Positions 6,726 through 58,391 of a stretch of DNA of 64,000 nt are shown here, one piece after another; position 1 is the first letter of the stretch, and each line of letters starts with the position of its first letter. The position numbers and the translations under genes were made by a program. The notes beneath the pieces were generated by a model. It was not told where the DNA came from and did no database searches. It saw only the letters and a list, made by a program, of their open reading frames with translations. The DNA is from Candidatus Staskawiczbacteria bacterium (lineage in GTDB: Bacteria; Patescibacteriota; Minisyncoccia; Minisyncoccales; Staskawiczbacteraceae), in assembly GCA_026395295.1 (NCBI GenBank), contig JAPLYZ010000007.1, forward strand, positions 66,518 through 130,517. Reading direction: 5' to 3'.

Positions 6726-8493
6726 TTTAGAAAAAATATTAAAGCAACTGACCGATAAAGCCCACCCCGTCATACGACGGGGTGCCCCATCGAATGATGG
6801 GGCAAAATTGATTTCTACGGCTTTTGAATTCGCGACACAAGCGTATAAAGAAAAAAATAGGCTGTCCGGAGAAAATTATATTTTTCATGCCGCAAGAGTC
6901 GCCTTGATGCTCGATAAAATGAACCTTGACTCAACGACAATTGCTTTTGGAATACTCCACGACGTTTTAGACGATACTCCTACCTCTGCCAAAAAAATAG
7001 AAATAAAAGAGATTGAAAAAAAGTTCGGGAAAGAAATGGGCCACTTGGTTGAGAAAACCTCAGAGTTAAGCAGGGTGAGATATTCTCTCATAATTGGAAT
7101 GAAAGACAAAAAGGCTTTTACAAAAGAGAAAGCTGAAAATCTGAGGAGAATGTTTCTTGCAATATCTGGAGACCTGAGAGTTGTCCTAATAGAGCTTTTA
7201 TCAAGATTAGACGGGCTAAACTTGTTGCACTATCTGCCGGAAGATAAACAAAAATTATTCTCTCTTGAAACTTTACAAATTTTCGTGCCGGTGGCTAACA
7301 GACTTGGCTTGTCTGAGATAAGAAGGAAGCTTGAAGACTTAGCCTTTTCTCATCTGTTCCCGGATAGGTTCAAGTGGCTGAAAGAAAACATCAAGAGCCA
7401 GTATGAAGAACGAGAAAAATATTTGAAGAAATTTATTCCTCGGCTAAAAAAAATATTGAGAAAAGAGGGGGTAAAAATTCTCGACATAAATTACCGTGCA
7501 AAATCTTATTGGAGCGCCTATCAGAAATTAATGAAACACCAGATGAACTTTGACGAAGTCCACGACTTGCTTGCGCTAAGAATAATTACGGCCGATGTTG
7601 AGAGTTGCTACAGGGTGCTAGGCATAATACATAAGCATTTTAAACCTATATCCGAAGAAATAAACGACTACATAGCGAAACCAAAGCCCAATGGTTACCG
7701 ATCGCTGCATACAACAATTTTCTCCAATGAAAACAAGATAACTGAGATTCAGATAAGAACAGATGAAATGCACAAAGAGGCAGAGTATGGTGTTTGCGCC
7801 CACTGGTCTTACAAAGAAAAAATAGACCTCAAAAAAGAAGGAAAAAACTTTGAGTGGGTGGAATCTGTTCCGGAGTTTTGGAAAACCTTTAAAATAGACT
7901 TTTTCGCGAATCAAGTTTTTACTTTTACCCCAAGAGGAGACATTGTTGTACTTCCCAAAAATTCAACTCCAATTGATTTTGCTTATGCGGTTCATTCAGA
8001 GATTGGAAATCATTGCGAATCCGCAAAAATAGACGGAAAAATTGTCCAGCTCGATAGCATCTTAAAAAACGGAGATGTGGTGGAAATATCCATTAATAAA
8101 AATAAAATCCCGTCAAAAGATTGGATGCGGTTTGTCAGAACATCTCTTGCGAAATCACATATAAAAAAGATAACAGGAGAAGACAAACCCGGCTTCAGGT
8201 TCCCATTACCGGAATTCATAAGAAAAAGAATCACAGAATTTTCCGAAGCCTCCAAAAAAAGACAGCAGGAGAGACAAAAAGCCAAAGAAGGAACTCCAAA
8301 ACAAATATATTTGGCAGGGCAAAAAGGAATGCTGACCCACATTGCCAAATGTTGCAATCCCCAGCCCGGCGACAAGGTTAGCGGGTATCTAGCCCAAAAC
8401 AGATCCGCTGTTTTGCACAAAACATCCTGCGACAATTTCAAAAAAATAGCTGAAAAATTCCCGGGGAAAATTGTCGACGCTTCATGGCAATAG
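6715..8493 (+). CDS. rel: bifunctional (p)ppGpp synthetase/hydrolase Rel/SpoT
   Basis: HD hydrolase domain (HAARVA...HDVLDDT), RelA/SpoT synthetase domain (YRSLHTT), TGS domain. The N-terminus carries an in-frame double-hairpin repeat. Confidence 0.85.
   Translation: MSNDLEKILKQLTDKAHPVIRRGAPSNDGAKLISTAFEFATQAYKEKNRLSGENYIFHAARVALMLDKMNLDSTTIAFGILHDVLDDTPTSAKKIEIKEIEKKFGKEMGHLVEKTSELSRVRYSLIIGMKDKKAFTKEKAENLRRMFLAISGDLRVVLIELLSRLDGLNLLHYLPEDKQKLFSLETLQIFVPVANRLGLSEIRRKLEDLAFSHLFPDRFKWLKENIKSQYEEREKYLKKFIPRLKKILRKEGVKILDINYRAKSYWSAYQKLMKHQMNFDEVHDLLALRIITADVESCYRVLGIIHKHFKPISEEINDYIAKPKPNGYRSLHTTIFSNENKITEIQIRTDEMHKEAEYGVCAHWSYKEKIDLKKEGKNFEWVESVPEFWKTFKIDFFANQVFTFTPRGDIVVLPKNSTPIDFAYAVHSEIGNHCESAKIDGKIVQLDSILKNGDVVEISINKNKIPSKDWMRFVRTSLAKSHIKKITGEDKPGFRFPLPEFIRKRITEFSEASKKRQQERQKAKEGTPKQIYLAGQKGMLTHIAKCCNPQPGDKVSGYLAQNRSAVLHKTSCDNFKKIAEKFPGKIVDASWQ
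6765..6803. repeat. double-hairpin repeat element (copy A) inside rel coding sequence
   Basis: CCCCGTCATACGACGGGG + GCCCCATCGAATGATGGGGC. A related copy lies at 54045-54086 with compensatory stem changes. Confidence 0.6.
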
Positions 8494-17370: not shown

Positions 17371-17430
17371 GTTCCAAAAATTACATTACAAACAACTTTG
17401 TAGATACTTTTTCACACTTTCTTACAGATA

Positions 17431-17460
17431 CTTTTTAATTTGCGACCGCAGAATAAAAAG
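17431..17460. repeat. palindromic repeat family P36, degenerate copy (core GCGACCGCAGAA)
   Basis: CTTTTTAATTTGCGACCGCAGAATAAAAAG. The core is the reverse-complement form of TTCTGCGGTCGC. Confidence 0.5.
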
Positions 17461-17484
17461 TATTCAACATATCTTACACTTTTC

Positions 17485-18057: not shown

Positions 18058-18084
18058 ATTTTAATTATATCACAACAATCCAAA

Positions 18085-18120
18085 ATACGCCAAATTCTGC
18101 GGTCGCAGAATTTGGCGTAT
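18085..18120. repeat. palindromic repeat family P36 copy (perfect 17-nt arms)
   Basis: ATACGCCAAATTCTGCGGTCGCAGAATTTGGCGTAT, about 30 nt upstream of the PaaX-like gene start. Confidence 0.7.
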
Positions 18121-18143
18121 TCTAACTAGTACAAACATGCATA

Positions 18144-25220: not shown

Positions 25221-25343
25221 GGTATCTATTTTTTTAATTTAGTTTATCTTACCTCTTAAATCGCCGAAATTCAACCTTTCACCCTCTTCAAAACAAAAAG
25301 CGAGCCGAATGATAAAATTGTCTCGCCTTAGTCTAAAAGCCAG

Positions 25344-25379
25344 ATACGTTTAATTCTGCGGTCGCAGAATTAAACGTAT
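25344..25379. repeat. palindromic repeat family P36 copy (perfect 17-nt arms)
   Basis: ATACGTTTAATTCTGCGGTCGCAGAATTAAACGTAT, just downstream of the hss stop codon. Confidence 0.7.
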
Positions 25380-25405
25380 TTGATGTTTTTACTATTTTTT
25401 TTATT

Positions 25406-32148: not shown

Positions 32149-33147
32149 TTACTGCGAGACGAACCCCGACGCAGAGCCGAAGTTGTCGCTCGGGCTGGAC
32201 ACATCGTCCGCGCCGAACTTGGCCTCGACGCTGAAGCCGAAGTACGGAGCGTGGCCGAACCGACCATCGCAGTCATCGGAGAATTCGTCGCCGGCCATGT
32301 CCATGTCCAGCTCTTCCCAGCGAACGAGGCGTTCCGGATGAACCAGAACGATTGAGCCTCCAGCGACGCTGGTAAGGCCGTACTCGCCCTTGGTGAAAGA
32401 TTCGCGTGCGAGACCGACGCAGTATCCGCCCCAACGCTTACCGAGCTGGCAAGCCTGAATACGGAAATCGCCTTGCTGTTGGTCCCGCATCTTCTGCATA
32501 ACTTCCCGAGTGTGCTGAGAGACGCGGATGTGAGCCGCGTCAATCTGGTTTTCGCGCCAGTTCGTGAACGAACGCGATTCGGCAATCTTCTGAAAGATGA
32601 GCTGCAGCGCCCGGCAGTACATCTCGGCGGGGTCTTTGACCTCGGGAAAATACTTTCGGGATAGCGCATCCTCCCACGGAACAAGGAATGCTCCTTCCAC
32701 CCAATTAGGTAGTGCGATTTTCTGCTGCACGTCCCTGTAGTAGCGAAACGCAGGTTCGGGGTCGAACCCGGGAAAATGCCGAAGCATCACCTCTGCCTGT
32801 TGCTGCATGGATTTGGGACCCTTGTACTCGCGCGGATAGTCGTAGGCCGGCCGAACCTTCTTACCCGCGTACTTGCTCTGTGGAGCGCGATGCTCCTCTA
32901 TCCAAGTAGCGATGTGTTCGGAGAGGCCAGGCGTGTCGTTAATACGCTGAGCTTCCCCTTCTGTACCATCTGACAAGCCGGCTTTATCGTAAGCGGCTGT
33001 CACGATTGACACGAACTTGAGACCTTTCGAGTCCCGTGATGTGACTGACGGAGCCAATTTTTGCATCGGAGCCATCCTTTCTACCGCGTTAAACGCGGTT
33101 TTCAATGTGCGTGTTGCGAATGCCCCGCAACAGGGCGTCCTAAACAT
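32149..33147 (-). CDS. hypothetical protein on a GC-rich (about 58% GC) foreign-looking segment
   Basis: Sharp GC and codon-usage shift (GC3-rich codons) confined to the ORF body. Putative extended -10 TGnTATAAT at 33166-33176 (minus strand). Terminator hairpin + T-run at about 32033-32079. Start is ambiguous (33147 or 33075). No recognisable family. Confidence 0.5.
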   Translation of the reverse strand: MFRTPCCGAFATRTLKTAFNAVERMAPMQKLAPSVTSRDSKGLKFVSIVTAAYDKAGLSDGTEGEAQRINDTPGLSEHIATWIEEHRAPQSKYAGKKVRPAYDYPREYKGPKSMQQQAEVMLRHFPGFDPEPAFRYYRDVQQKIALPNWVEGAFLVPWEDALSRKYFPEVKDPAEMYCRALQLIFQKIAESRSFTNWRENQIDAAHIRVSQHTREVMQKMRDQQQGDFRIQACQLGKRWGGYCVGLARESFTKGEYGLTSVAGGSIVLVHPERLVRWEELDMDMAGDEFSDDCDGRFGHAPYFGFSVEAKFGADDVSSPSDNFGSASGFVSQ

Positions 33148-38935: not shown

Positions 38936-38973
38936 ATAGTAAGTTTTTTGGCTCGAGCCAAAAAACTTACTAT
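38936..38973. terminator. perfect 38-nt palindrome after the phosphatase gene (terminator/operator candidate)
   Basis: ATAGTAAGTTTTTTGGCTCGAGCCAAAAAACTTACTAT. Confidence 0.45.
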
Positions 38974-39680: not shown

Positions 39681-41378
39681 TTACATTCTATTCAAAGTTT
39701 TCATCCCCAACAGCCATAAACCGTTTTCCATAATCCGAGTAAATGCGATGGTCAGCGCCACCCTATAAGGCGATGTCTCTTTTTCGTCAACAATTTTATT
39801 CTCCGCATAATAAGTATTAAATGTTGCGGCAAGTTCCGTCAGGTACAGCGAAACATAGTGAGGCTCATAACTTTTACCGGCTTGTACCACAATATCTGGG
39901 AAATAGCACATTATTTTTTCCAACTGAGTAATTTTTTCCGGCGCATTCTTAAAGGATGCTTTTAGCCCCTGTTCTTTGGCTTTCCTTAAAACCGACTTCG
40001 CCCTCGCATATGAGTATTGTAGGTAAGGACCCGAATCGCCCTCAAAAGAAATTGAATGTTCAAAATTAAAAATAATATCGTGTCCTATCGTCTGTTTTAA
40101 AATTGAATACTTTATGGCGCCTATAGCAACATCTTCAATAATTTCTTTTTTTTCTTTTTCTGACAATTCTCTGTCTTTTATTTTTTCTCTTACCAATTCT
40201 TCAACTTTTTCTATTAAAGATTCTCCGGTTATAACTTTCCCCGTGCGAGATGACATCTTTCCTTCGGGCAGCCTCAACATTCCATGACCGATATGTTTTG
40301 TTTTCTCTGCGAGCTTTGGTAAAACTTTATCCATTGCACAAAGCATCACCTTGAAATAATCATTCACCTCATTTCCGGTGACAATCACCGATTTGTCATA
40401 AGCATATTTTTCATACTTTATTTTCGCCAATCCCAAATCTTTTGCCTCGTACGTGGGTAAGCCATCCGAATTGATAAACACCCTTGTGTGTAAACCATAT
40501 TTTTCACCTTTAAAAATAATCGCTCCATTCTCTCCCTTCTCAAAAATTCCATCTTTTAACCCTTTCTCAACGATTTTTTTACCCAAATCGGCGACCTGGC
40601 TCTCAAAGATGAAATAGTCAAATTCTGTTCCGAGTTTTTTATAAATCTCGTTAAAATACTTTAGACTTACTTTTTTGCCTTCGTTATAAAGTTTATTTAT
40701 ATTTTTATCGCTCTTCTCAAATATTTTTTTATTTAATTCTGTTATTTCTTTCTTGGATATATCACTACTTTCGTATGCTTCAGAACCAAATCTATATGCT
40801 GTCCCCCAGATATGAACCATATCTGTCAGAGTGTCATTCTTTCTAATAAAATGACTGTTTTTTTCCATTTGTATCGCACCCCAAACCGCTTTTGCAATGC
40901 TAATTCCCACGTCTGACTGATAACAAGCTCTCTTTACTTTGGCTCCCTGAAATTCAAAGATACGAGATAATGATTCGCCGATAGCATTGCTCATCAGGTG
41001 TCCGATATGGAACTCTTTCAGTATGTTCGGGTCCGTGTAATCAATAATAATTTTTTTACTCTTTAATTCGTTTCCTTTACCAAAATCTTCATCTATATTT
41101 TTCAAATTCTCTATAAAAACTTTATCAGAAACAAAAAAATTAATGAAACCATTCGCCACTTCAATCTTCTCAAAAAAATCTTGCTTGCCAATCTTTTCTT
41201 TTATTGAATTGGCGACCTCAGAGGGATTCTTTCCTAATTTCTTAGCCAAAATCAGCGCGACATTTGTTGAGTAATCGCCATTTCTTTTGTCGCTGGGAAC
41301 TTCAACTGAAAAATCGCTGACTTCATTAAAGTCCTTAACAACCTCCTTAATTAAATTTATTATTTTTGCTTTTAACAT
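39681..41378 (-). CDS. argS: arginyl-tRNA synthetase
   Basis: HIGH-region HIGHLMSNAIG, catalytic core, DALR anticodon-binding C-terminus. Confidence 0.9.
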   Translation of the reverse strand: MLKAKIINLIKEVVKDFNEVSDFSVEVPSDKRNGDYSTNVALILAKKLGKNPSEVANSIKEKIGKQDFFEKIEVANGFINFFVSDKVFIENLKNIDEDFGKGNELKSKKIIIDYTDPNILKEFHIGHLMSNAIGESLSRIFEFQGAKVKRACYQSDVGISIAKAVWGAIQMEKNSHFIRKNDTLTDMVHIWGTAYRFGSEAYESSDISKKEITELNKKIFEKSDKNINKLYNEGKKVSLKYFNEIYKKLGTEFDYFIFESQVADLGKKIVEKGLKDGIFEKGENGAIIFKGEKYGLHTRVFINSDGLPTYEAKDLGLAKIKYEKYAYDKSVIVTGNEVNDYFKVMLCAMDKVLPKLAEKTKHIGHGMLRLPEGKMSSRTGKVITGESLIEKVEELVREKIKDRELSEKEKKEIIEDVAIGAIKYSILKQTIGHDIIFNFEHSISFEGDSGPYLQYSYARAKSVLRKAKEQGLKASFKNAPEKITQLEKIMCYFPDIVVQAGKSYEPHYVSLYLTELAATFNTYYAENKIVDEKETSPYRVALTIAFTRIMENGLWLLGMKTLNRM

Positions 41379-42131
41379 TTAGCTAATTACTGTGCCTATA
41401 AACGGCTTGTTATTTAAAAAATCTTCTAACCGCTCTAAATTTTTACCATTAATCATTATGACTTTTAGTTTTAACTGAGCCGCCAATTTTGAAGCTTTTG
41501 GGTCAAACGGCATTGAAAGGCCTGGTATCCATTTATCGCCCACAATTCTTTCAAAATTTTTCCAATCAATATCTTTTAGGGGCTTAGCATCGGGAAATTG
41601 AAGTGGATTCTTGTCATACACATAATCAACATTTGTAAGGTTAATTATGGTTTTTAATCCGTAATTTTTGGCTGTTAAAACAGAAACGTAATCGGTTGAC
41701 CAGCCGGGCTTGTATCCTGCGCCAACTATAATTTCCTTGGTGGTTTTTATTTTCTTTTTCGGGTCTGTAACAATTTTAGGATAAGAATAGCCGGAAAATA
41801 ACTGTTTTACAACTTCTGCGTTTAATTTTGTAACATCAATTCCAATCCAATCTCTTTCATTAGACTTTGCGCCAAATTCCAAAAGAGCTTTTTGATATGC
41901 TCTCGCAATTTTCCCTCCACCAACCAAGACAAAGAATTGTCTTGCCCTGAGCGGAGTCGAAGGGCTATCCCCGATATATTTACTAAGAGAGTGCCGGAAA
42001 TTCTTCAAAAATCCTAAATCAATCTCATCTGGCGCCACCAACGACCCTCCCAAAGATATAATTATTGTTTCCCTCGCCCCGCGAAGCGGGGTACCCTTTG
42101 GGTCGGAAGTGGGGTTTTTTACATTATCCAT
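41379..42131 (-). CDS. pyrH: UMP kinase, archaeal-type (amino-acid kinase family)
   Basis: IIISLGGSLV, VLVGGGKIAR, LTNVDYVYDKNP match archaeal-type PyrH. Extra in-frame segment DSPSTPLRARQ relative to homologues. Confidence 0.65.
   Translation of the reverse strand: MDNVKNPTSDPKGTPLRGARETIIISLGGSLVAPDEIDLGFLKNFRHSLSKYIGDSPSTPLRARQFFVLVGGGKIARAYQKALLEFGAKSNERDWIGIDVTKLNAEVVKQLFSGYSYPKIVTDPKKKIKTTKEIIVGAGYKPGWSTDYVSVLTAKNYGLKTIINLTNVDYVYDKNPLQFPDAKPLKDIDWKNFERIVGDKWIPGLSMPFDPKASKLAAQLKLKVIMINGKNLERLEDFLNNKPFIGTVIS
41945..41965. repeat. intragenic 21-nt element (CCCTGAGC-GGA-GTCGAAGGG) in pyrH, encoding SPSTPLRARQ
   Basis: Shares the TTGTCTTGC upstream flank with the polX copy. Confidence 0.65.
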
Positions 42132-42191
42132 AATAAAATTTTAGCACATATCCGCATAAAATTAAAGTTTTTGTCTTCCATTCGATTAATT

Positions 42192-42250
42192 CAAACTATC
42201 AACCTCGTGTCAGGTTAACATTATGTTAACCTGAATTAATTTGATAGTGG
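42192..42250. promoter_or_regulatory. nested palindromes in the pyrH-argS upstream region
   Basis: CAGGTTAACATTATGTTAACCTG flanked by CAAACTATCAA / TTGATAGTG. A further palindrome TTTTTTCACGTGGCGTGAAAAAA lies at 42307-42329. Confidence 0.4.
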
Positions 42251-42442
42251 TAAGATTTTTGTCGTTCGGCAAAAAACCTACCATTATCTTTTTCGTTATT
42301 TTCATATTTTTTCACGTGGCGTGAAAAAATACCCATTGTAGTTTCTTCATGTTGTTTGTTCTGTCTAACAAAGCAGTGCGATATCAAAAGGATGACAAAG
42401 CTGAGCCATGCAAAAAAAGAGCACCTACTTAATTTCGGTGCC

Positions 42443-42856
42443 TTACTTGGTAACGGAGGGCATTCCCATGAGGATTAAAATTTCTCGTAACTCCCGTATA
42501 GACTTTTTCCCCATGTTCCGAGCCTTAATCAATTCCATTTCTGTTGTTTCGGCTACATCCTTTACGGTCCAGCACGCGATTCGGTGCAGTGCATTGCGTA
42601 TCCTCGTAGATACGGGCAGGTCGTCGATAGACAGGTCTCCCACTTTTCCGTTCTTAATCGCACGTTGCAATCGACTCATTCGTTCGATAATTAGTTCACC
42701 TTCCCCGATCAATATAGTAACACGCGATTCCGATATGCAAAATCGCTTGCCGATTTTTCCAAGACTCTTACCACTTTTGCGCAACCTTAGAATAGCTTTT
42801 ATCCGTCCATCGGACACCAGATTAATCTTAGCTTCACTGAATCTTATTATTTTCAT
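42443..42856 (-). CDS. putative transcription regulator: sigma-70 region-4-like HTH fused to RNA polymerase alpha C-terminal-domain-like (HhH) domain
   Basis: N-terminal half ILRLRKSGKSLGKIGKRFCISESRVTILI resembles sigma region 4.2. C-terminal half DDLPVSTRIRNALHRIACWTVKDVAETTEMELIKARNMGKKSIRELREIL aligns with the alpha-CTD DDLELTVRSANCLK...LLKTPNLGKKSLTEIK. GC is higher than flanking DNA. Confidence 0.5.
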   Translation of the reverse strand: MKIIRFSEAKINLVSDGRIKAILRLRKSGKSLGKIGKRFCISESRVTILIGEGELIIERMSRLQRAIKNGKVGDLSIDDLPVSTRIRNALHRIACWTVKDVAETTEMELIKARNMGKKSIRELREILILMGMPSVTK

Positions 42857-42958
42857 TCCTATCCTTATTATACAGTTTAAAGTGCTACATAATACATAGC
42901 ATATAAAGAGTACGATGTCAATATTTTCTGAAATGCAAATAAATGATAATCTTAATCA

Positions 42959-43405
42959 ATGAAGATATTTAGTGAAAATAAAAAAGCGGGGTTTGATTAT
43001 GAAGTCCTGGAAAGGTTTGAGGCAGGGCTGGTTTTGTTTGGCCAAGAGGTAAAATCCATAAAAACCGGACATATAAATTTATCTGGAGCTTACGTGAGTT
43101 TGGCGTCAGGCGAGCCTTTTTTGGTGGGGGTAAAAGTGCCTCCCTACCAGCCAAATAATGCCGGAGCCGGCTACAACGACGAACGTCAAAGAAAGCTTCT
43201 TCTAAACAAAAAAGAGATTGATTATTTGCAAGGAAAGACAAAAGTTAAGGGTTTTTCGCTTATACCCTTGAAAGTTTACGAAAAGAGTGGTAGGATAAAG
43301 CTCGAATTCGGATTAGCCCGCGGTAAGAAGAAATTTGATAAAAAAGAGAAAATAAAAAAGAGAGACGTGGAAAGAGAGGTTAATCGCGAATTATCAAGGG
43401 AGTGA
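42959..43405 (+). CDS. smpB: SsrA-binding protein
   Basis: FDYEVLERFEAGLVLFGQEVKS... canonical SmpB sequence. Confidence 0.9.
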   Translation: MKIFSENKKAGFDYEVLERFEAGLVLFGQEVKSIKTGHINLSGAYVSLASGEPFLVGVKVPPYQPNNAGAGYNDERQRKLLLNKKEIDYLQGKTKVKGFSLIPLKVYEKSGRIKLEFGLARGKKKFDKKEKIKKRDVEREVNRELSRE

Positions 43406-43751
43406 ATGTTTCGATGGATAGTTTTTTTGAGTAAGGCAAGTTGAGCTTTCTTGGGGCTCGTTAATATCCGGGAAAAAACATAATTGCTAATTTATTTAAC
43501 TTTAATAAGCAACCAGCGTTAGCTTTCGCTTAATGCTGCATCCTTACCGTTGACTCCTAATAAACGGACCAAGGGTGTTATATTATTAGGATAGGCATTT
43601 CATTTCTCCGGTGACTTGCCGAAACTAAGGAGATAAGGCGTTAAAAATTTTGTTAATTCTTTATTTAACGTTCGAACACCAGAATTAACTAAACTTGTAG
43701 AATTGCTTTCAAAAACTTTTCAGACGCGAGTTCAATCTCGCCACTTCCACA
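43398..43751 (+). ncRNA. ssrA: tmRNA (ssrA)
   Basis: 5' GGGAGUGAAUGUUUCGAUGG resembles the tmRNA 5' end. 3' tRNA-like end GACGCGAGTTCAATCTCGCCACTTCCA, with acceptor GGGAGTG/CACTTCC pairing. Tag ORF 43486-43533 encodes ANLFNFNKQPALAFA*. Overlaps the smpB stop codon. Confidence 0.7.
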
Positions 43752-43782
43752 CTTCGACAAACTCAGTGTAAACCAAAAAACT

Positions 43783-44834: not shown

Positions 44835-44908
44835 AAAACAAAAAAAGAACCGCTTCCTGAAAAGGGGGCGGTTTTCGTTTGTGTTATATCCATAAATCAC
44901 GCCAAAGT

Positions 44909-45196
44909 TTAGCCTGATGGATACCTTATCGTTGTGAATATTTCAAGGTTCCTGAATGCGCGACTCAGCAGGACCGCTATCTCTGACTCGGTTACTGGGA
45001 AAAAATAGAAACTGGCTGCTGTTGCAGAATATCTTGATCCGCTCCAGCGAAGATGTCGAACAACATCGTGCGCTTCTTTGGTAAACACATAGACCTCCGC
45101 TCCAAACAGGGGCATTATCTTAACAACTAAATCATACCCATTAGACATTGATATCTCGCAATCTCCCCAGACGTTTTTCATTAGAAGAGCTCTCAT
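44909..45196 (-). CDS. hypothetical small protein (compositionally atypical, about 46% GC)
   Basis: 95-aa ORF with no recognised motif; convergent with rplT. Confidence 0.3.
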   Translation of the reverse strand: MRALLMKNVWGDCEISMSNGYDLVVKIMPLFGAEVYVFTKEAHDVVRHLRWSGSRYSATAASFYFFPVTESEIAVLLSRAFRNLEIFTTIRYPSG

Positions 45197-45306
45197 TTTT
45201 GCCTCCTTCTCAAATCAATAGGTGTATCATCATATCTCTTACTATCACATTTTTTGCTCTAAGTAAACAAAAAAACGCCACTGCGTCTATAATTTTTAAT
45301 TGGGCA

Positions 45307-45792
45307 CTATCTTTCAATTTTTATAATGAAATCATTTGCCTCTTTCAATAATTTTTTTGAATTTTTGAACGTTGTTTTCTTAATTGCCTCGGCAATGGGC
45401 AACCATAAAAATCCTGAATGCTCAGAAGAAATTTTAATTTCTTTGGTTTTTGTTTCTGCAGCAAAAAATGCCACCAATTTAAAAACCCATGGAGTTTTCC
45501 CTGCCTTTCTGTCTGCTTCAGAAACATTTTCTTTATATTGTCTGAAAAAATATTTCATATACTTTTTGAAACCCGGAATAAGTTTTAAATCTTTGATGCC
45601 GGTTTCTTCTGCCACCTCTCTTCTTACGGTCTCTTCCTCGGTCTCTTTTCCTTCAATGTGCCCCTTGGGAAACTCCCAATGACCCGACCCGTAATGCAAA
45701 AGTAAAAAATATCTTTTATATTTTTTACCCTGAGCCGAGTCGAAGGGCTCGTCTCTGAAAATTATAGCTCCTGCTGATTTTTCTTTAGGCAT
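45307..45792 (-). CDS. NUDIX hydrolase
   Basis: Nudix box GHWEFPKGHIEGKETEEETVRREVAEETG. Extra in-frame segment DEPFDSAQGKK. Confidence 0.75.
   Translation of the reverse strand: MPKEKSAGAIIFRDEPFDSAQGKKYKRYFLLLHYGSGHWEFPKGHIEGKETEEETVRREVAEETGIKDLKLIPGFKKYMKYFFRQYKENVSEADRKAGKTPWVFKLVAFFAAETKTKEIKISSEHSGFLWLPIAEAIKKTTFKNSKKLLKEANDFIIKIER
45728..45748. repeat. intragenic 21-nt element (CCCTGAGC-CGA-GTCGAAGGG) in NUDIX gene, encoding EPFDSAQG
   Basis: Different reading frame through the element than in the other three copies. Confidence 0.65.
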
Positions 45793-47570
45793 TACTTAAA
45801 AAATTCTAATAATTTTTCTACGGACAACGTGTTTATTATATCTGCTTTTTCTGCCCAGCCACGATGTGCTTGACCAATTCCATATTCCATCAAATTCAAC
45901 TGTTCTTTATTGTGGCTGTCTGTGTTTATTATCATCTTTAATCCATGCGTTTTGGCTCTTCGAATGTTGAAACCATTCAGATCCAATCTCAAGGGCGAGG
46001 AATTAATTTCTAAAATTGTGCCATTTTCCTTGGCAACTTCTAAAATTTTATCAAAATCCATTTGATATTCGTCTCTTTTTCCAATCAGCCTCCCGGTTGG
46101 ATGGCCAAATATATCAACATTACGGTTCTTTATGGCTTTTATTATTCTGGCTGTCATTTTTTTCTTTTCCATTTTCATACCTGAATGCACGCTGGCAATA
46201 ACATAATCTAATTTTTCTAAAATTTCGTCCTTCGCATTAAGCGATCCGTCCAACATTATGTCTGCCTCGCACCCATGCAACACTCTAAATTTCAAATTTT
46301 GTTTTTTAAATTTTGCATTTAGCTCTTCTATTTTTTTATGCTGTTTTAGAATTTCTTTTTCGTCTAGCCCATTGGTCACTCCCAAAAATTTCGTATGGTC
46401 GGAAATTCCCACATATTCATAGCCTAAATCCATTGCCGAACGAACCATTTCTTCAATTGAATCTTTTCCGTCGGAAGCAACCGTGTGGCAGTGCAGGTCG
46501 CCCTTTATATCTTTTTGTTTAATCAAAACAGGCAACGAACCGTTTAAAACAGCTTGAATTTCTCCATCGTCTTCGCGCATTTCCGGAGCTACAAAAGAAA
46601 GTCCAATTGCTTTATAAACATCTTCCTCGGTTGCCCCCGCTATTTGTCTTGCTCGCCCTGAGCCTGTCGAAGGGTTCCCTTCGAAAACTCCGTATTCAGA
46701 AAGTTTTAACCCTTTCTCAATGGCAATTTTCCGCGTGCTAATGTTGTGTTCCTTGGAGCCTGTAAAATATTGTAAAGCCGAGCCAAAACTTTCTCTTTTC
46801 ACCATTCTCAAGTCCACATCAAAGCCAGCTTTAAGCCTTACAGAGCATTTTGTAGAACCTTCTGCCCAAATTTTTTCAACCTCGGGCAAGCTAACAAAAA
46901 AATCAGCTGTTTTTTTAGGATTTTCCGACACCACTAAAATATCGATGTCTCCAATTGTCTCCTTCTGTCGTCTTACCGAGCCGGCAACGCTCACTTCTTT
47001 TATTTCCTTTCTTGCCCTTAAGCTCTCCTCAATAATTTTTACAGTCGGCATAATATCTCCAAGCAAAAACCTGCCTTTACTCCTCTTCAAAAATTCCAAC
47101 CCTTGCAAAATATTCTGCTCTGTTTTTTCTCCAAAACCAAAAAGCGGAGATATTTTATGGGCTTTAGCGGCTTTTCCCAAATCTTTCAAATCTTTAACTC
47201 CCAGTTCCCGATAAAGAACTTTTATTTTTTTAGGACCAAGGCTTTCAACCCTCAACAACTCGTCAACCTTCAGGGGTAACTTTTTTTTGAGCTCTTCCAA
47301 GCTTTTTATTTTTCCGCTTTTTAAATATTCCTCAATAGCTTTGGCAATTCCTTCGCCAACTCCCGGAATTTCTTGCAAACCTTTAATTCCTTTGCTTCTG
47401 TAAATTTCGCCAACATCCTCTTTCCAGTTATCTAAAGATAACGCCACTTTTCTGTAAGCATAGGGCTTAAAATCCACGCCTTCTATTTCCAAATAATCAG
47501 CCATTTCAAAAAATATTTTAGATAATTCCTGATTTTTCACCCCGTTAGAAGTCTTCTTTTTATTTTTCAA
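45792..47570 (-). CDS. polX: DNA polymerase X family protein with C-terminal PHP domain
   Basis: HhH motifs, pol-beta nucleotidyltransferase GSVRRQKETIGDIDILV, PHP domain DLHCHTVASDG. Confidence 0.85.
   Translation of the reverse strand: MKNKKKTSNGVKNQELSKIFFEMADYLEIEGVDFKPYAYRKVALSLDNWKEDVGEIYRSKGIKGLQEIPGVGEGIAKAIEEYLKSGKIKSLEELKKKLPLKVDELLRVESLGPKKIKVLYRELGVKDLKDLGKAAKAHKISPLFGFGEKTEQNILQGLEFLKRSKGRFLLGDIMPTVKIIEESLRARKEIKEVSVAGSVRRQKETIGDIDILVVSENPKKTADFFVSLPEVEKIWAEGSTKCSVRLKAGFDVDLRMVKRESFGSALQYFTGSKEHNISTRKIAIEKGLKLSEYGVFEGNPSTGSGRARQIAGATEEDVYKAIGLSFVAPEMREDDGEIQAVLNGSLPVLIKQKDIKGDLHCHTVASDGKDSIEEMVRSAMDLGYEYVGISDHTKFLGVTNGLDEKEILKQHKKIEELNAKFKKQNLKFRVLHGCEADIMLDGSLNAKDEILEKLDYVIASVHSGMKMEKKKMTARIIKAIKNRNVDIFGHPTGRLIGKRDEYQMDFDKILEVAKENGTILEINSSPLRLDLNGFNIRRAKTHGLKMIINTDSHNKEQLNLMEYGIGQAHRGWAEKADIINTLSVEKLLEFFK
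46656..46685. repeat. intragenic 21-nt element (CCCTGAGC-CT-GTCGAAGGG) in polX, encoding NPSTGSGRARQ
   Basis: This copy is extended into a perfect palindrome TCGAAGGGTTCCCTTCGA. Confidence 0.65.
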
Positions 47571-54044: not shown

Positions 54045-54086
54045 CAACAGGAATCGCCCAGTCATACGACTGGGCGCCCTATCGTA
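54045..54086. repeat. double-hairpin repeat element (copy B), intergenic next to tRNA-Arg
   Basis: GCCCAGTCATACGACTGGGC + GCCCTATCGTATGATGGGGC. Compensatory G-to-A / C-to-T changes relative to copy A preserve the first stem. Confidence 0.6.
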
Positions 54087-54095
54087 TGATGGGGC

Positions 54096-57944: not shown

Positions 57945-58391
57945 CTACGATTTGGCTGAAGCCGACAAATAAAGGAGCCCCTTTTTCAAACCTTTTACCA
58001 CGGAGCCCAGGCTGGCATCAATCAAGTTCTCGGAACATTCTTCTCCACTGCAACGAAGCTGACCGTTAAAAAACGCAACTCTGACCCGAGCAAGAGACTT
58101 GACGTCACCGTTGGAGTGCTCCTCATGAACCCTGCGCTCAACGAGACTCATGCTCGCCACCGCCGGGAAAAAAGGAGCGAGTGTATTTCTCATGGCAATG
58201 TCTATCACCTCAATCAACACCTTGCCGTCGGCGACTCCCCGCACTACTATCGCCTTTTTGCCCTTTGCTTTCACCGCGACTTTCACGACCACCTCCAGCG
58301 AACTTGTCTGTTTCCCCCCGGAAAAAACTCCTACCCCGTGGACGCTGTATCCAATGACCTTAAAAGACTCATACACTGTTTTCATAATCAA
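57945..58391 (-). CDS. hypothetical protein (about 50% GC, compositionally atypical)
   Basis: 148 aa with no recognised motif. Codon usage differs from neighbouring genes. Confidence 0.3.
   Translation of the reverse strand: MIMKTVYESFKVIGYSVHGVGVFSGGKQTSSLEVVVKVAVKAKGKKAIVVRGVADGKVLIEVIDIAMRNTLAPFFPAVASMSLVERRVHEEHSNGDVKSLARVRVAFFNGQLRCSGEECSENLIDASLGSVVKGLKKGLLYLSASAKS

Follow-up and report, generated by a model that had tools for sequence, protein, structure and literature searches.

The C-terminal domain (CTD) of the alpha subunit is usually regarded as part of RNA polymerase (RNAP), and the locus described here raises the question of what such a domain does when it is found in a small protein of its own, fused to a helix-turn-helix (HTH). 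The protein, of 137 amino acids (aa), is encoded in a 64,000-nucleotide stretch of a Candidatus Staskawiczbacteria contig (hereafter the window), within the 827-bp spacer between the divergent genes smpB and pyrH. An initial annotation, made from the sequence alone, had described it as a fusion of a sigma region 4.2-like HTH and an alpha-CTD-like domain, lying beside several long palindromes. Our answer, which we hold with moderate confidence, is that the product of the gene, small and strongly basic, binds DNA in a sequence-specific manner and most likely regulates transcription, by way of what would be a bipartite site. The gene and its two domains are as follows.

42443..42856, minus strand: gene for the 137-aa two-domain protein (N-terminal HTH, C-terminal alpha-CTD-like), from the list of open reading frames (ORFs), Pfam, NCBIfam, homologues, the ratio of non-synonymous to synonymous substitution rates (dN/dS) and the isoelectric point (pI)
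42653..42835, minus strand: helix-turn-helix domain, residues 8-68, from an AlphaFold model, sub-threshold HTH_23, Sigma70_r4 and GerE-type matches, and Foldseek
42464..42643, minus strand: RNAP alpha-CTD-like double helix-hairpin-helix, (HhH)2, domain, residues 72-131, from Pfam PF03118, an ungapped alignment to Escherichia coli chain 6b6h_I and fold matches

The C-terminal domain is recognizable both by sequence and by fold. Pfam RNA_pol_A_CTD (PF03118) covers residues 72-127 (E=5.3e-13; score 48.9 bits, more than twice the gathering score of 23.8), and the best matches among solved structures are the isolated alpha-CTD chains of Bacillus subtilis and E. coli, with which 56-63 residues align without gaps at 32-36% identity (E=6e-8 to 2e-7). 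In the AlphaFold model, four helices within residues 84-129 form the second domain (confidence score, pLDDT, 82-90 across the domain), which Foldseek superposes on solved alpha-CTDs in the Protein Data Bank (PDB) to within 1.3-2.0 Å over 62-66 residues, examples being 1z3e_B (1.4 Å over 65 columns; TM-score 0.86 on the target), 3gfk_B (1.3 Å) and 3n97_B (1.9 Å); the fold matches include the DNA-bound complexes 3n97, 3n4m and 9zum as well as complexes with Spx. The residue-by-residue likeness to alpha-CTD that had been proposed is thus borne out at the level of profile, alignment and structure.

The likeness extends to the residues expected to touch DNA. The ungapped alignment to 6b6h_I places R85, N88, G116, K118 and S119 opposite E. 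coli R265, N268, G296, K298 and S299, which in E. coli alpha are the contacts to the minor groove of the UP element, and it places a proline opposite E261, the residue that touches sigma in E. coli. Fold and contact residues are common to the domain and the alpha-CTD of RNAP (PF03118; PDB 1z3e_B, 3gfk_B, 3n97, 3k4g), whereas the remainder of the protein is not: an HTH stands where alpha has its flexible linker, the E261 equivalent is lost to proline, and the Pfam scan found no trace of the alpha N-terminal domain (PF01000, PF01193), which provides dimerization and assembly, so that the protein cannot serve as an RNAP subunit in the ordinary manner. Among curated families the small hypothetical-protein family NF005841 (PRK07758) of NCBIfam matches residues 82-127 weakly (E=2e-3); it appears to be another free-standing small protein with an alpha-CTD-type region, but it differs in that the match reaches only 18 bits against a cut-off of 115 and that its 95-residue profile leaves scant space for a second domain.

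In the model the N-terminal domain forms an HTH, although its subtype is less specific than had been supposed. The model was built from an alignment of the seven-member family (pLDDT 85), a single-sequence model being unusable (pLDDT 54), and it arranges helices 17-27, 32-39 and 43-68 as an HTH (pLDDT 88-94 over residues 11-50) whose recognition helix, 43-68, extends into a long connector helix. No Pfam family exceeds its cut-off over this half of the protein (HTH_23 E=3e-3, HTH_SB 0.035, Sigma70_r4 0.043). Region 4 of sigma-70 (PF04545/PF08281) reaches 13.8 bits against a gathering score of 24.1, and 16.7-17.6 against 24.1-25.7 in the relatives P0011 and P0029 (related proteins carry P numbers here); LuxR/GerE (PF00196) is not listed for the 137-aa protein at E<=10 and attains 13.1 bits against 23.5 in P0011; and HTH_23, HTH_28 and HTH_29 are the leading Pfam hints across the family. 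When a family profile of the N-terminal 70 residues was compared with PDB sequences, and a match to a designed repeat protein set aside, the PAI subdomain of Sleeping Beauty transposase was found at E=3e-4, SdiA, NarL and GerE of the LuxR type at E=1.5e-3 to 0.02, and region 4 of many sigma factors at E=0.03 to 0.1. Against predicted viral structures, Foldseek returned proteins of phages that bear the name sigma region 4 or that of an ECF sigma factor (0.8-2.0 Å over 51-62 residues, at weak E values of 0.18-0.5), matches that, to judge by those names, most plausibly cover the N-terminal domain.

These comparisons point to an HTH of the sigma-4/LuxR/paired type. The domain has the LxxIGKxFxISxxRV pattern and sub-threshold Sigma70_r4 matches in common with region 4 (PF04545; structure 3n97), and P0011 is more sigma-like, with a sigma-4.2-like motif, ISKTRIRQLIEKG, yet it too falls under the Pfam cut-offs; unlike sigma factors, the 137-aa protein has no region 2 or 3 (Pfam found no Sigma70_r2/r3). 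The best profile matches for residues 14-67 are LuxR/GerE and transposase paired-like HTHs (SdiA, NarL, GerE, Sleeping Beauty PAI, HTH_23), but these too are weak (E=3e-4 to 0.02) and the protein lacks the receiver, ligand-binding or transposase catalytic domain that would accompany them. The designation 'sigma region 4.2' is consequently unjustified, because the Pfam cut-off is never reached and LuxR/GerE and transposase HTHs match at least as well; of the initial annotation's claim the HTH stands and the region 4.2 identity is only weakly supported, and the Pfam search that it suggested comes out positive for RNA_pol_A_CTD and negative for Sigma70_r4.

The family to which the protein belongs is very rare. 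A word-indexed homologue search with the single protein recovered nothing but that protein, which occurs in the Logan assemblies of a single study (ERR153021xx to ERR153022xx), for which reason exhaustive HMMER and profile searches were needed, and GTDB species representatives held no match for the single protein. Across 1.84 billion representatives, the exhaustive HMMER search yielded 1373 proteins at E<=1e-3, nearly all through the alpha-CTD part. Full-length relatives number only six, at 29-35% identity (P0011, P0029, P0151, P0152, P0153 and P0154), and the family amounts to 7 clusters in 5.8 billion proteins. It divides into a short subtype of 137-159 aa and a long subtype of 179-182 aa, in which the C-terminus is extended by a conserved segment (…LFREMLNALGHDVRICRRG). 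A motif akin to this segment, GYTEGAIGLFREML, follows the alpha-CTD-like domain in P0158, P0159 and P0161, which have no HTH. The dN/dS of P0011 against P0151 is 0.28, which suggests that the family gene is under purifying selection.

While full-length relatives are few, the combination of the two domains is met more widely. We scanned with Pfam, at E<=1e-5, 120 of the best non-self matches of at most 700 aa, and found RNA_pol_A_CTD in 119, TPR_2 (TPR repeats) in 40 and Sigma70_r4 in 20, with no alpha N-terminal family among the 25 most frequent Pfam families of these proteins. In P0104 region 4 (Sigma70_r4 E=6e-24) is followed by an alpha-CTD, the unit being present twice; in P0108, P0024 and P0025 region 4 is likewise N-terminal to alpha-CTD domains, the region 4 of P0025 being under the Pfam cut-off; and in P0005, P0013, P0033 and P0071 the two lie further apart. 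The 20 of 120, together with these individual examples, make a sigma-4-like HTH beside an alpha-CTD a repeated design. The window protein, with an N-terminal HTH (8-68), a short linker and an alpha-CTD (72-131) in one chain, reads as a minimal version of it, and the free-standing two-domain fusion originally described is upheld. Proteins such as P0104, P0108, P0024, P0025 and P0019 (Sigma70_r4 plus RNA_pol_A_CTD) share the domain pair and, in several cases, the HTH-first order, but differ in length (238-1133 aa), in often carrying several alpha-CTD repeats, in a region 4 that exceeds the Pfam threshold (P0025 apart), and in being only ~30% identical over the aligned stretches; none of them bears a name.

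Two other architectures were seen among the related proteins. P0002, P0003, P0004 and others are large and consist of numerous alpha-CTD-like repeats in tandem, of which as many as 11-12 were matched within 806-1031 aa, and a numerous group of ~435-460 aa combines TPR repeats with two alpha-CTD domains; no protein of either architecture has a name in the libraries used.

The gene itself is intact and appears, from its flanking signals, to be an independent, monocistronic transcription unit. Its 137 codons begin with an ATG, and a ribosome-binding site (AGGA/AGG) lies 5-10 nt 5' of that ATG; the start is further backed by M1 and K2, which are invariant in all seven family members, and the predicted ORF is accordingly taken as real. 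The product has a pI of 10.5, its N half (residues 1-70) being the more basic at 11.3 and its C half (71-137) standing at 9.4. Signals were recognized on both sides of the coding sequence.

42893..42921, minus strand: putative promoter of the gene, TTGACA, 17 nt, TATGTA, inferred from sequence (a consensus scan gave no call)
42867-42874, minus strand: candidate alternative -10 element TGTATAAT
42410..42444, minus strand: intrinsic-terminator-like hairpin that overlaps the stop codon and is followed by seven U (GGCACC...GGUGCUC UUUUUUU), seen in the sequence and as the first hairpin of the minimum-free-energy fold

The hairpin with its U7 looks like the gene's own intrinsic terminator, which the consensus scan overlooked because its loop is 11 nt. 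As had been reported, smpB (42959-43405, plus strand) and the transfer-messenger RNA (tmRNA; 43398-43752, plus strand) lie on the divergent side, and pyrH, for an archaeal-type UMP kinase (41379-42131, minus strand), and argS (39681-41378, minus strand) on the other. The elevated GC content was also seen again, at 0.437 where the genes average 0.386 (sd 0.041), fifth highest of 56 ORFs; the gene is above its flanks, yet with z=1.25 it is no outlier. The tmRNA called by Rfam starts 8 nt inside the end of smpB (overlap 43398-43405), and ARAGORN did not report a tmRNA at 43398-43752. The 64-kb window contains no rpoA, and a host alpha subunit without a normal CTD, encoded outside the window, is an intriguing possibility.

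Comparison with related genomes explains where the gene sits. The organism is near Parcubacteria-type genomes of the candidate phyla radiation (CPR), with ArgRS identities of 72% to one related locus (L016; loci carry L numbers) and 59% to another from Candidatus Staskawiczbacteria (L017). L016 has the gene order of the window (PolX, Nudix, rplT, rpmI, infC, smpB, then pyrH, argS and a histidine phosphatase), with smpB and pyrH divergent and 80 bp apart. Among 26 further metagenomic loci with pyrH at 59-81% identity, most of those with enough upstream sequence retain the divergent smpB-pyrH pair, with spacers that vary greatly in length. Four relatives have 80-89 bp, and 14 others have 134-2807 bp of unrelated content.

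42132..42958, no strand: whole 827-bp smpB-pyrH spacer of the window, lineage-specific cargo in a hypervariable site, from comparison with relatives
80-89 bp: spacer in L016/L028, L030 and L037
134-604 bp: spacer in L031, L046, L029, L045 and L032
799-1257 bp: spacer in L027, L026, L036, L033, L041/L042, L017 and L040
about 2750 bp (up to about 2800): spacer in L024, L035 and L038

The long spacers of relatives hold unrelated, mostly GC-richer ORFs. L024 has a reverse transcriptase (RVT_1, E=1e-22) there, L035 and L038 encode close homologues of this enzyme, and L035 further has a bAvd protein (E=2e-17); the combination indicates a diversity-generating retroelement with a probable target gene. 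No relative of the 137-aa protein was found at the compared smpB-pyrH loci (tblastn at 1e-4). Because the spacers of relatives are short or differently filled, the interval 42132-42958 corresponds exactly to the variable insert, and the GC of 0.437 fits the GC-richer cargo in most longer spacers. The gene is thus an accessory cargo gene, probably acquired horizontally, and in this CPR clade the smpB-pyrH spacer emerges as a hot spot where accessory cargo of various kinds, diversity-generating retroelements among them, is found.

How, then, might the protein work? By domain homology the N-terminal HTH would read the major groove, and the long helix would link it to the alpha-CTD-type (HhH)2 domain, which, with the minor-groove residues of RNAP alpha kept, could add a contact to an adjacent A/T tract and so create a bipartite site. 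Several points weigh against this proposal. No binding site was identified for the protein, and comparison tied it to no DNA motif; its N-terminal domain falls under every curated threshold; the AlphaFold model was built on only 7 aligned sequences; and alpha-CTD domains also serve as protein-interaction surfaces. Moreover, among the seven family members the five alpha-type contact residues are complete only in the window protein, the K298 equivalent being G in P0011 and the R265 and N268 equivalents being L and T, respectively, in the long subtype. Since the contact residues vary in this way, canonical UP-like binding may be specific to the window member, or may not be the conserved function. 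Nor are the neighbourhoods of the family genes conserved, and because they differ, genomic context yields no functional hint; the gene content of two such loci, L007 and L009, looked typical of small CPR genomes.

The alternative closest to what had originally been suggested is that the protein copies, in a single chain, the pair of sigma region 4 and alpha-CTD on -35/UP DNA, and would compete with RNAP or pre-mark promoters. The order of HTH then alpha-CTD does recur in other proteins whose Sigma70_r4 domain is genuine, the window protein retains all five residues that contact the UP element, the HTH of the family can carry a sigma-4.2-like motif, as in P0011, and one of the fold matches, 3n97, is a complex of sigma-4, alpha-CTD and UP/-35 DNA in which RNAP sets side by side two modules resembling those joined here. 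Set against this, the HTH of the window protein stays below the Sigma70_r4 cut-off and is matched at least as well by LuxR/GerE and transposase HTHs, the sigma-contacting E261 position is a proline, the contact residues vary in the family, and no promoter-like target was identified, so that we consider such a copy unlikely. The same doubt attaches to a broader form of the idea, that the protein is the minimal member of a wide, unstudied class combining sigma-4 with alpha-CTD and reproducing the -35/UP reading head of RNAP, which accessory or mobile genes would employ on the UP-type promoters of A/T-rich genomes, to occupy them, silence them or mark them in advance; this, too, we judge unlikely.

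Whichever of these applies, the parts belong to known domain superfamilies and the architecture is one for which we found no prior study, our searches of a paper library having turned up nothing published on alpha-CTD-like proteins that stand alone or on fusions of sigma-4 with alpha-CTD. A free-standing copy of alpha-CTD with all five DNA-contact residues, fused to an HTH, and the presence of the domain pair in about one sixth of the sampled non-RpoA alpha-CTD proteins point to an unstudied DNA-binding regulator design. Were such proteins to read -35/UP-like DNA or to hinder recruitment of RNAP, they would represent a new mode of promoter control; if this is merely another small HTH regulator, the value is modest and mainly one of cataloguing.

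A further alternative looks for the partner of the protein next door, in the palindrome-rich DNA between its gene and pyrH, which could be an operator array for pyrH-argS or a structured non-coding RNA acquired together with the gene. The following features were recognized there.

42210..42234, no strand: perfect 25-bp palindrome TCAGGTTAACAT t ATGTTAACCTGA with 12-bp arms, unique in the window
42243..42288, no strand: imperfect palindrome with 22-nt arms, 82% complementary, of the T-tract/A-tract type (...GGTTTTTTGCCG aa CGACAAAAATC...), from repeat and hairpin scans
42305..42331, no strand: perfect palindrome TATTTTTTCACG tgg CGTGAAAAAATA with 12-bp arms, a T-tract/A-tract hairpin, in single copy in the window
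42170..42399, no strand: long-range inverted repeat of 17 nt, 82% complementary (arms 42170-42186 and 42383-42399), which encloses the three hairpins and pairs in the fold of either strand
42138..42146, minus strand: extended -10-like TGCTAAAAT, 6 nt 5' of the pyrH ATG, a putative pyrH promoter inferred from sequence

The palindromes lie just 5' of this putative promoter, from which the pyrH mRNA would be near-leaderless, and L016 has TGATAAACT at the position matching TGCTAAAAT. Of about 14 long intergenic hairpins in the window, these two perfect palindromes and one long imperfect one fall within 311 of the 5575 intergenic bases, where about 0.8 would be expected, and the spacer folds far beyond its shuffles on both strands (z=-4.5 and -79.7 kcal/mol on the minus strand, z=-5.6 and -79.4 kcal/mol on the plus strand). 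The long palindromes noted beside the gene are thus real, with perfect arms at 42210-42234 and 42305-42331, and their enrichment over other intergenic DNA is mild.

A dedicated role with the protein fits these features poorly. The three palindromes differ from one another in sequence, so there is no repeated operator; neither they nor the 17-nt inverted repeat have further copies in the window beyond chance; the two strands fold equally and so show none of the preference that would mark an RNA gene; and Rfam gave no match to the spacer at the gathering score, the best sub-threshold E values being 0.58-0.73. In two of the three (42248-42283 and 42305-42331) the 5' arm carries a T-tract and the 3' arm an A-tract, with a short GC core between, and hairpins of this type are found elsewhere in the window at 17428 and at 38936-38973, the latter at the end of the pyrH-argS-phosphatase run. 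They also occur three times in L041 (3167-3200, 3243-3266 and 3308-3341), between pyrH and a cargo gene different from that of the window, and the hairpin at 42243-42288 has a 20-nt match to a like hairpin 5' of pyrH in L041/L042. The suggestion that the protein is tied to the neighbouring palindromes accordingly finds no support, and we rate a partnership with the spacer as slightly less likely again than a copy of the RNAP contacts. Most likely these are lineage-typical intergenic hairpins, which would act as terminators or insulators of transcription in the stretch from the inserted gene to the pyrH promoter, and they are probably not operators of the 137-aa protein.

Some related observations may be recorded here. 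The order of the arms, T-tract before A-tract, is the reverse of that in a classical bidirectional terminator, and hairpins of this kind stand at gene ends and 5' of pyrH in two genomes. The long intergenic palindromes of the window further include two small families. In one (17428-17463, 18082-18123 and 25341-25382) the core is TTCTGCGGTCGCAGAA, exact or slightly varied, and the outer arms are unlike; the two copies of the other (6770-6797 and 54062-54089) follow the pattern TCATACGAC.GGG.GCCC.ATCG.ATGA. A 53-aa ORF within the spacer (42226-42387) has no Pfam match, and 10-mers common to the promoter region of the gene and the spacer were rejected as a signal, being compatible with chance in A/T-rich DNA.

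The loci of two family members offer a comparison. In L007 (990-1230) and L012 (2020-2200) a strong promoter-like site (TTGACA...TATAAT) lies 3' of the family gene and is followed by a conserved GC-rich, hairpin-rich segment 5' of a 58-aa zinc-ribbon gene. In L007 a 36-bp perfect palindrome abuts the -35 element of this next promoter, an arrangement that might speak for palindromes as partners of the family, but it is missing from the close relative L012. Both loci also have, in the 5' leader of the family gene (L007 440-495; L012 1470-1525), a 13-bp perfect hairpin (ATTACGGATTTGA ... TCAAATCCGTAAT), placed between a promoter-like site and the ribosome-binding site; there is no equivalent at the window gene.

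DNA may also not be the principal ligand. The alpha-CTD-like domain could act as an adaptor or decoy that captures factors docking on alpha-CTD, or the HTH could itself dock on RNAP, with DNA binding secondary. The alpha-CTD is a known docking surface, for Spx and CAP among others, and the best fold matches include complexes of this kind (1z3e, 3gfk, 3n4m); the residues conserved in the family are mostly structural whereas the DNA-contact ones vary; and in 40 of the 120 related proteins the alpha-CTD is paired with TPR repeats, which mediate protein interaction. However, the window protein holds the complete DNA-contact set, is very basic and has an HTH, and no partner gene is located beside its monocistronic unit, all of which makes the adaptor or decoy role doubtful, and a little more so than a link to the palindromes.

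The position of the gene in an insertion hot spot invites the thought that it is an accessory of a mobile element, either a remnant or a helper such as a transposase-type HTH or a recombination directionality factor, with the 17-nt repeat at 42170/42383 marking the ends of the element. Among natural PDB proteins the transposase PAI subdomain indeed matches the N-terminal domain best, the HTH_23, HTH_28 and HTH_29 families lead the Pfam hints, and the imperfect inverted repeat surrounds a 230-bp block. Yet no transposase or recombinase catalytic domain lies nearby, the repeat and the palindromes have no other copies in the window, plasmids and phages gave no match, and the family gene, apparently under purifying selection, occurs in varied contexts that do not look mobile. 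A mobile-element accessory is on these grounds very unlikely.

That the gene is a truncated rpoA paralogue or pseudogene, an idea to which the match of NCBIfam rpoA models (TIGR02027, PRK05182) to residues 61-132 might lend something (E=4e-12, at 25-46 bits against cut-offs of 228-523), is effectively refuted by the want of an alpha N-terminal domain, by a confident HTH in the first 70 residues, by an intact ORF with its own ribosome-binding site and terminator, by six full-length homologues of like architecture, and by a dN/dS of 0.28 between two of them.

As to origin, the phage-like source that had been raised as a possibility is unsupported. The 137-aa protein has no PHROG match at E<=0.01; PADLOC gave no meaningful defence-system match, only an alpha-CTD-like stretch of PglW at E=1e-3; tblastn against phage records met rpoA-like stretches only; a scan of IMG/VR found two loci, each matching the alpha-CTD part alone beside a non-HTH N-terminus; and the 827-bp insert has no DNA similarity to plasmids or phages. 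The only hints come from small phage proteins in BFVD named 'RNA polymerase, alpha subunit, C-terminal' (A0A6J5QDR9, A0A6J5MNY7, A0A6J7WD60), which are of like size (128-135 aa) and of which Foldseek aligns 121-131 columns, most of their length, so that they may be two-domain proteins of like design; they differ in that the matches have E values of 4e-3 to 0.19, 15-21% identity and a large overall root-mean-square deviation, and no relation was found at the level of sequence.

Further signs of GC-rich sequence were seen around the locus and elsewhere in the window. Two ORFs stand well above the mean GC of 0.386, namely 32149-33147 (minus strand, 0.571), which has no Pfam match, and 57945-58391 (minus strand, 0.506), which matches LeuA_dimer weakly. 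A GC-richer gap of 470 bp (44835-45306) separates rplT from the Nudix gene, where L016 has 13 bp, and may be a second small insertion; it contains a 95-aa ORF (44909-45196, minus strand) with no NCBIfam match. Finally, short GC-rich in-frame insertions that are absent from the L016 orthologues occur in pyrH, PolX (45792-47570) and Nudix (45307-45792), and look like small GC-rich elements within coding sequence. Those of pyrH are an N-terminal MDNVKNPTSDPKGTPLRGAR (42072-42131) and an internal SPSTPLRAR (about 41935-41975), that of PolX reads NPSTGSGRAR and that of Nudix PFDSAQGK, and one of the insertions holds a CCCCGC/GCGGGG hairpin.

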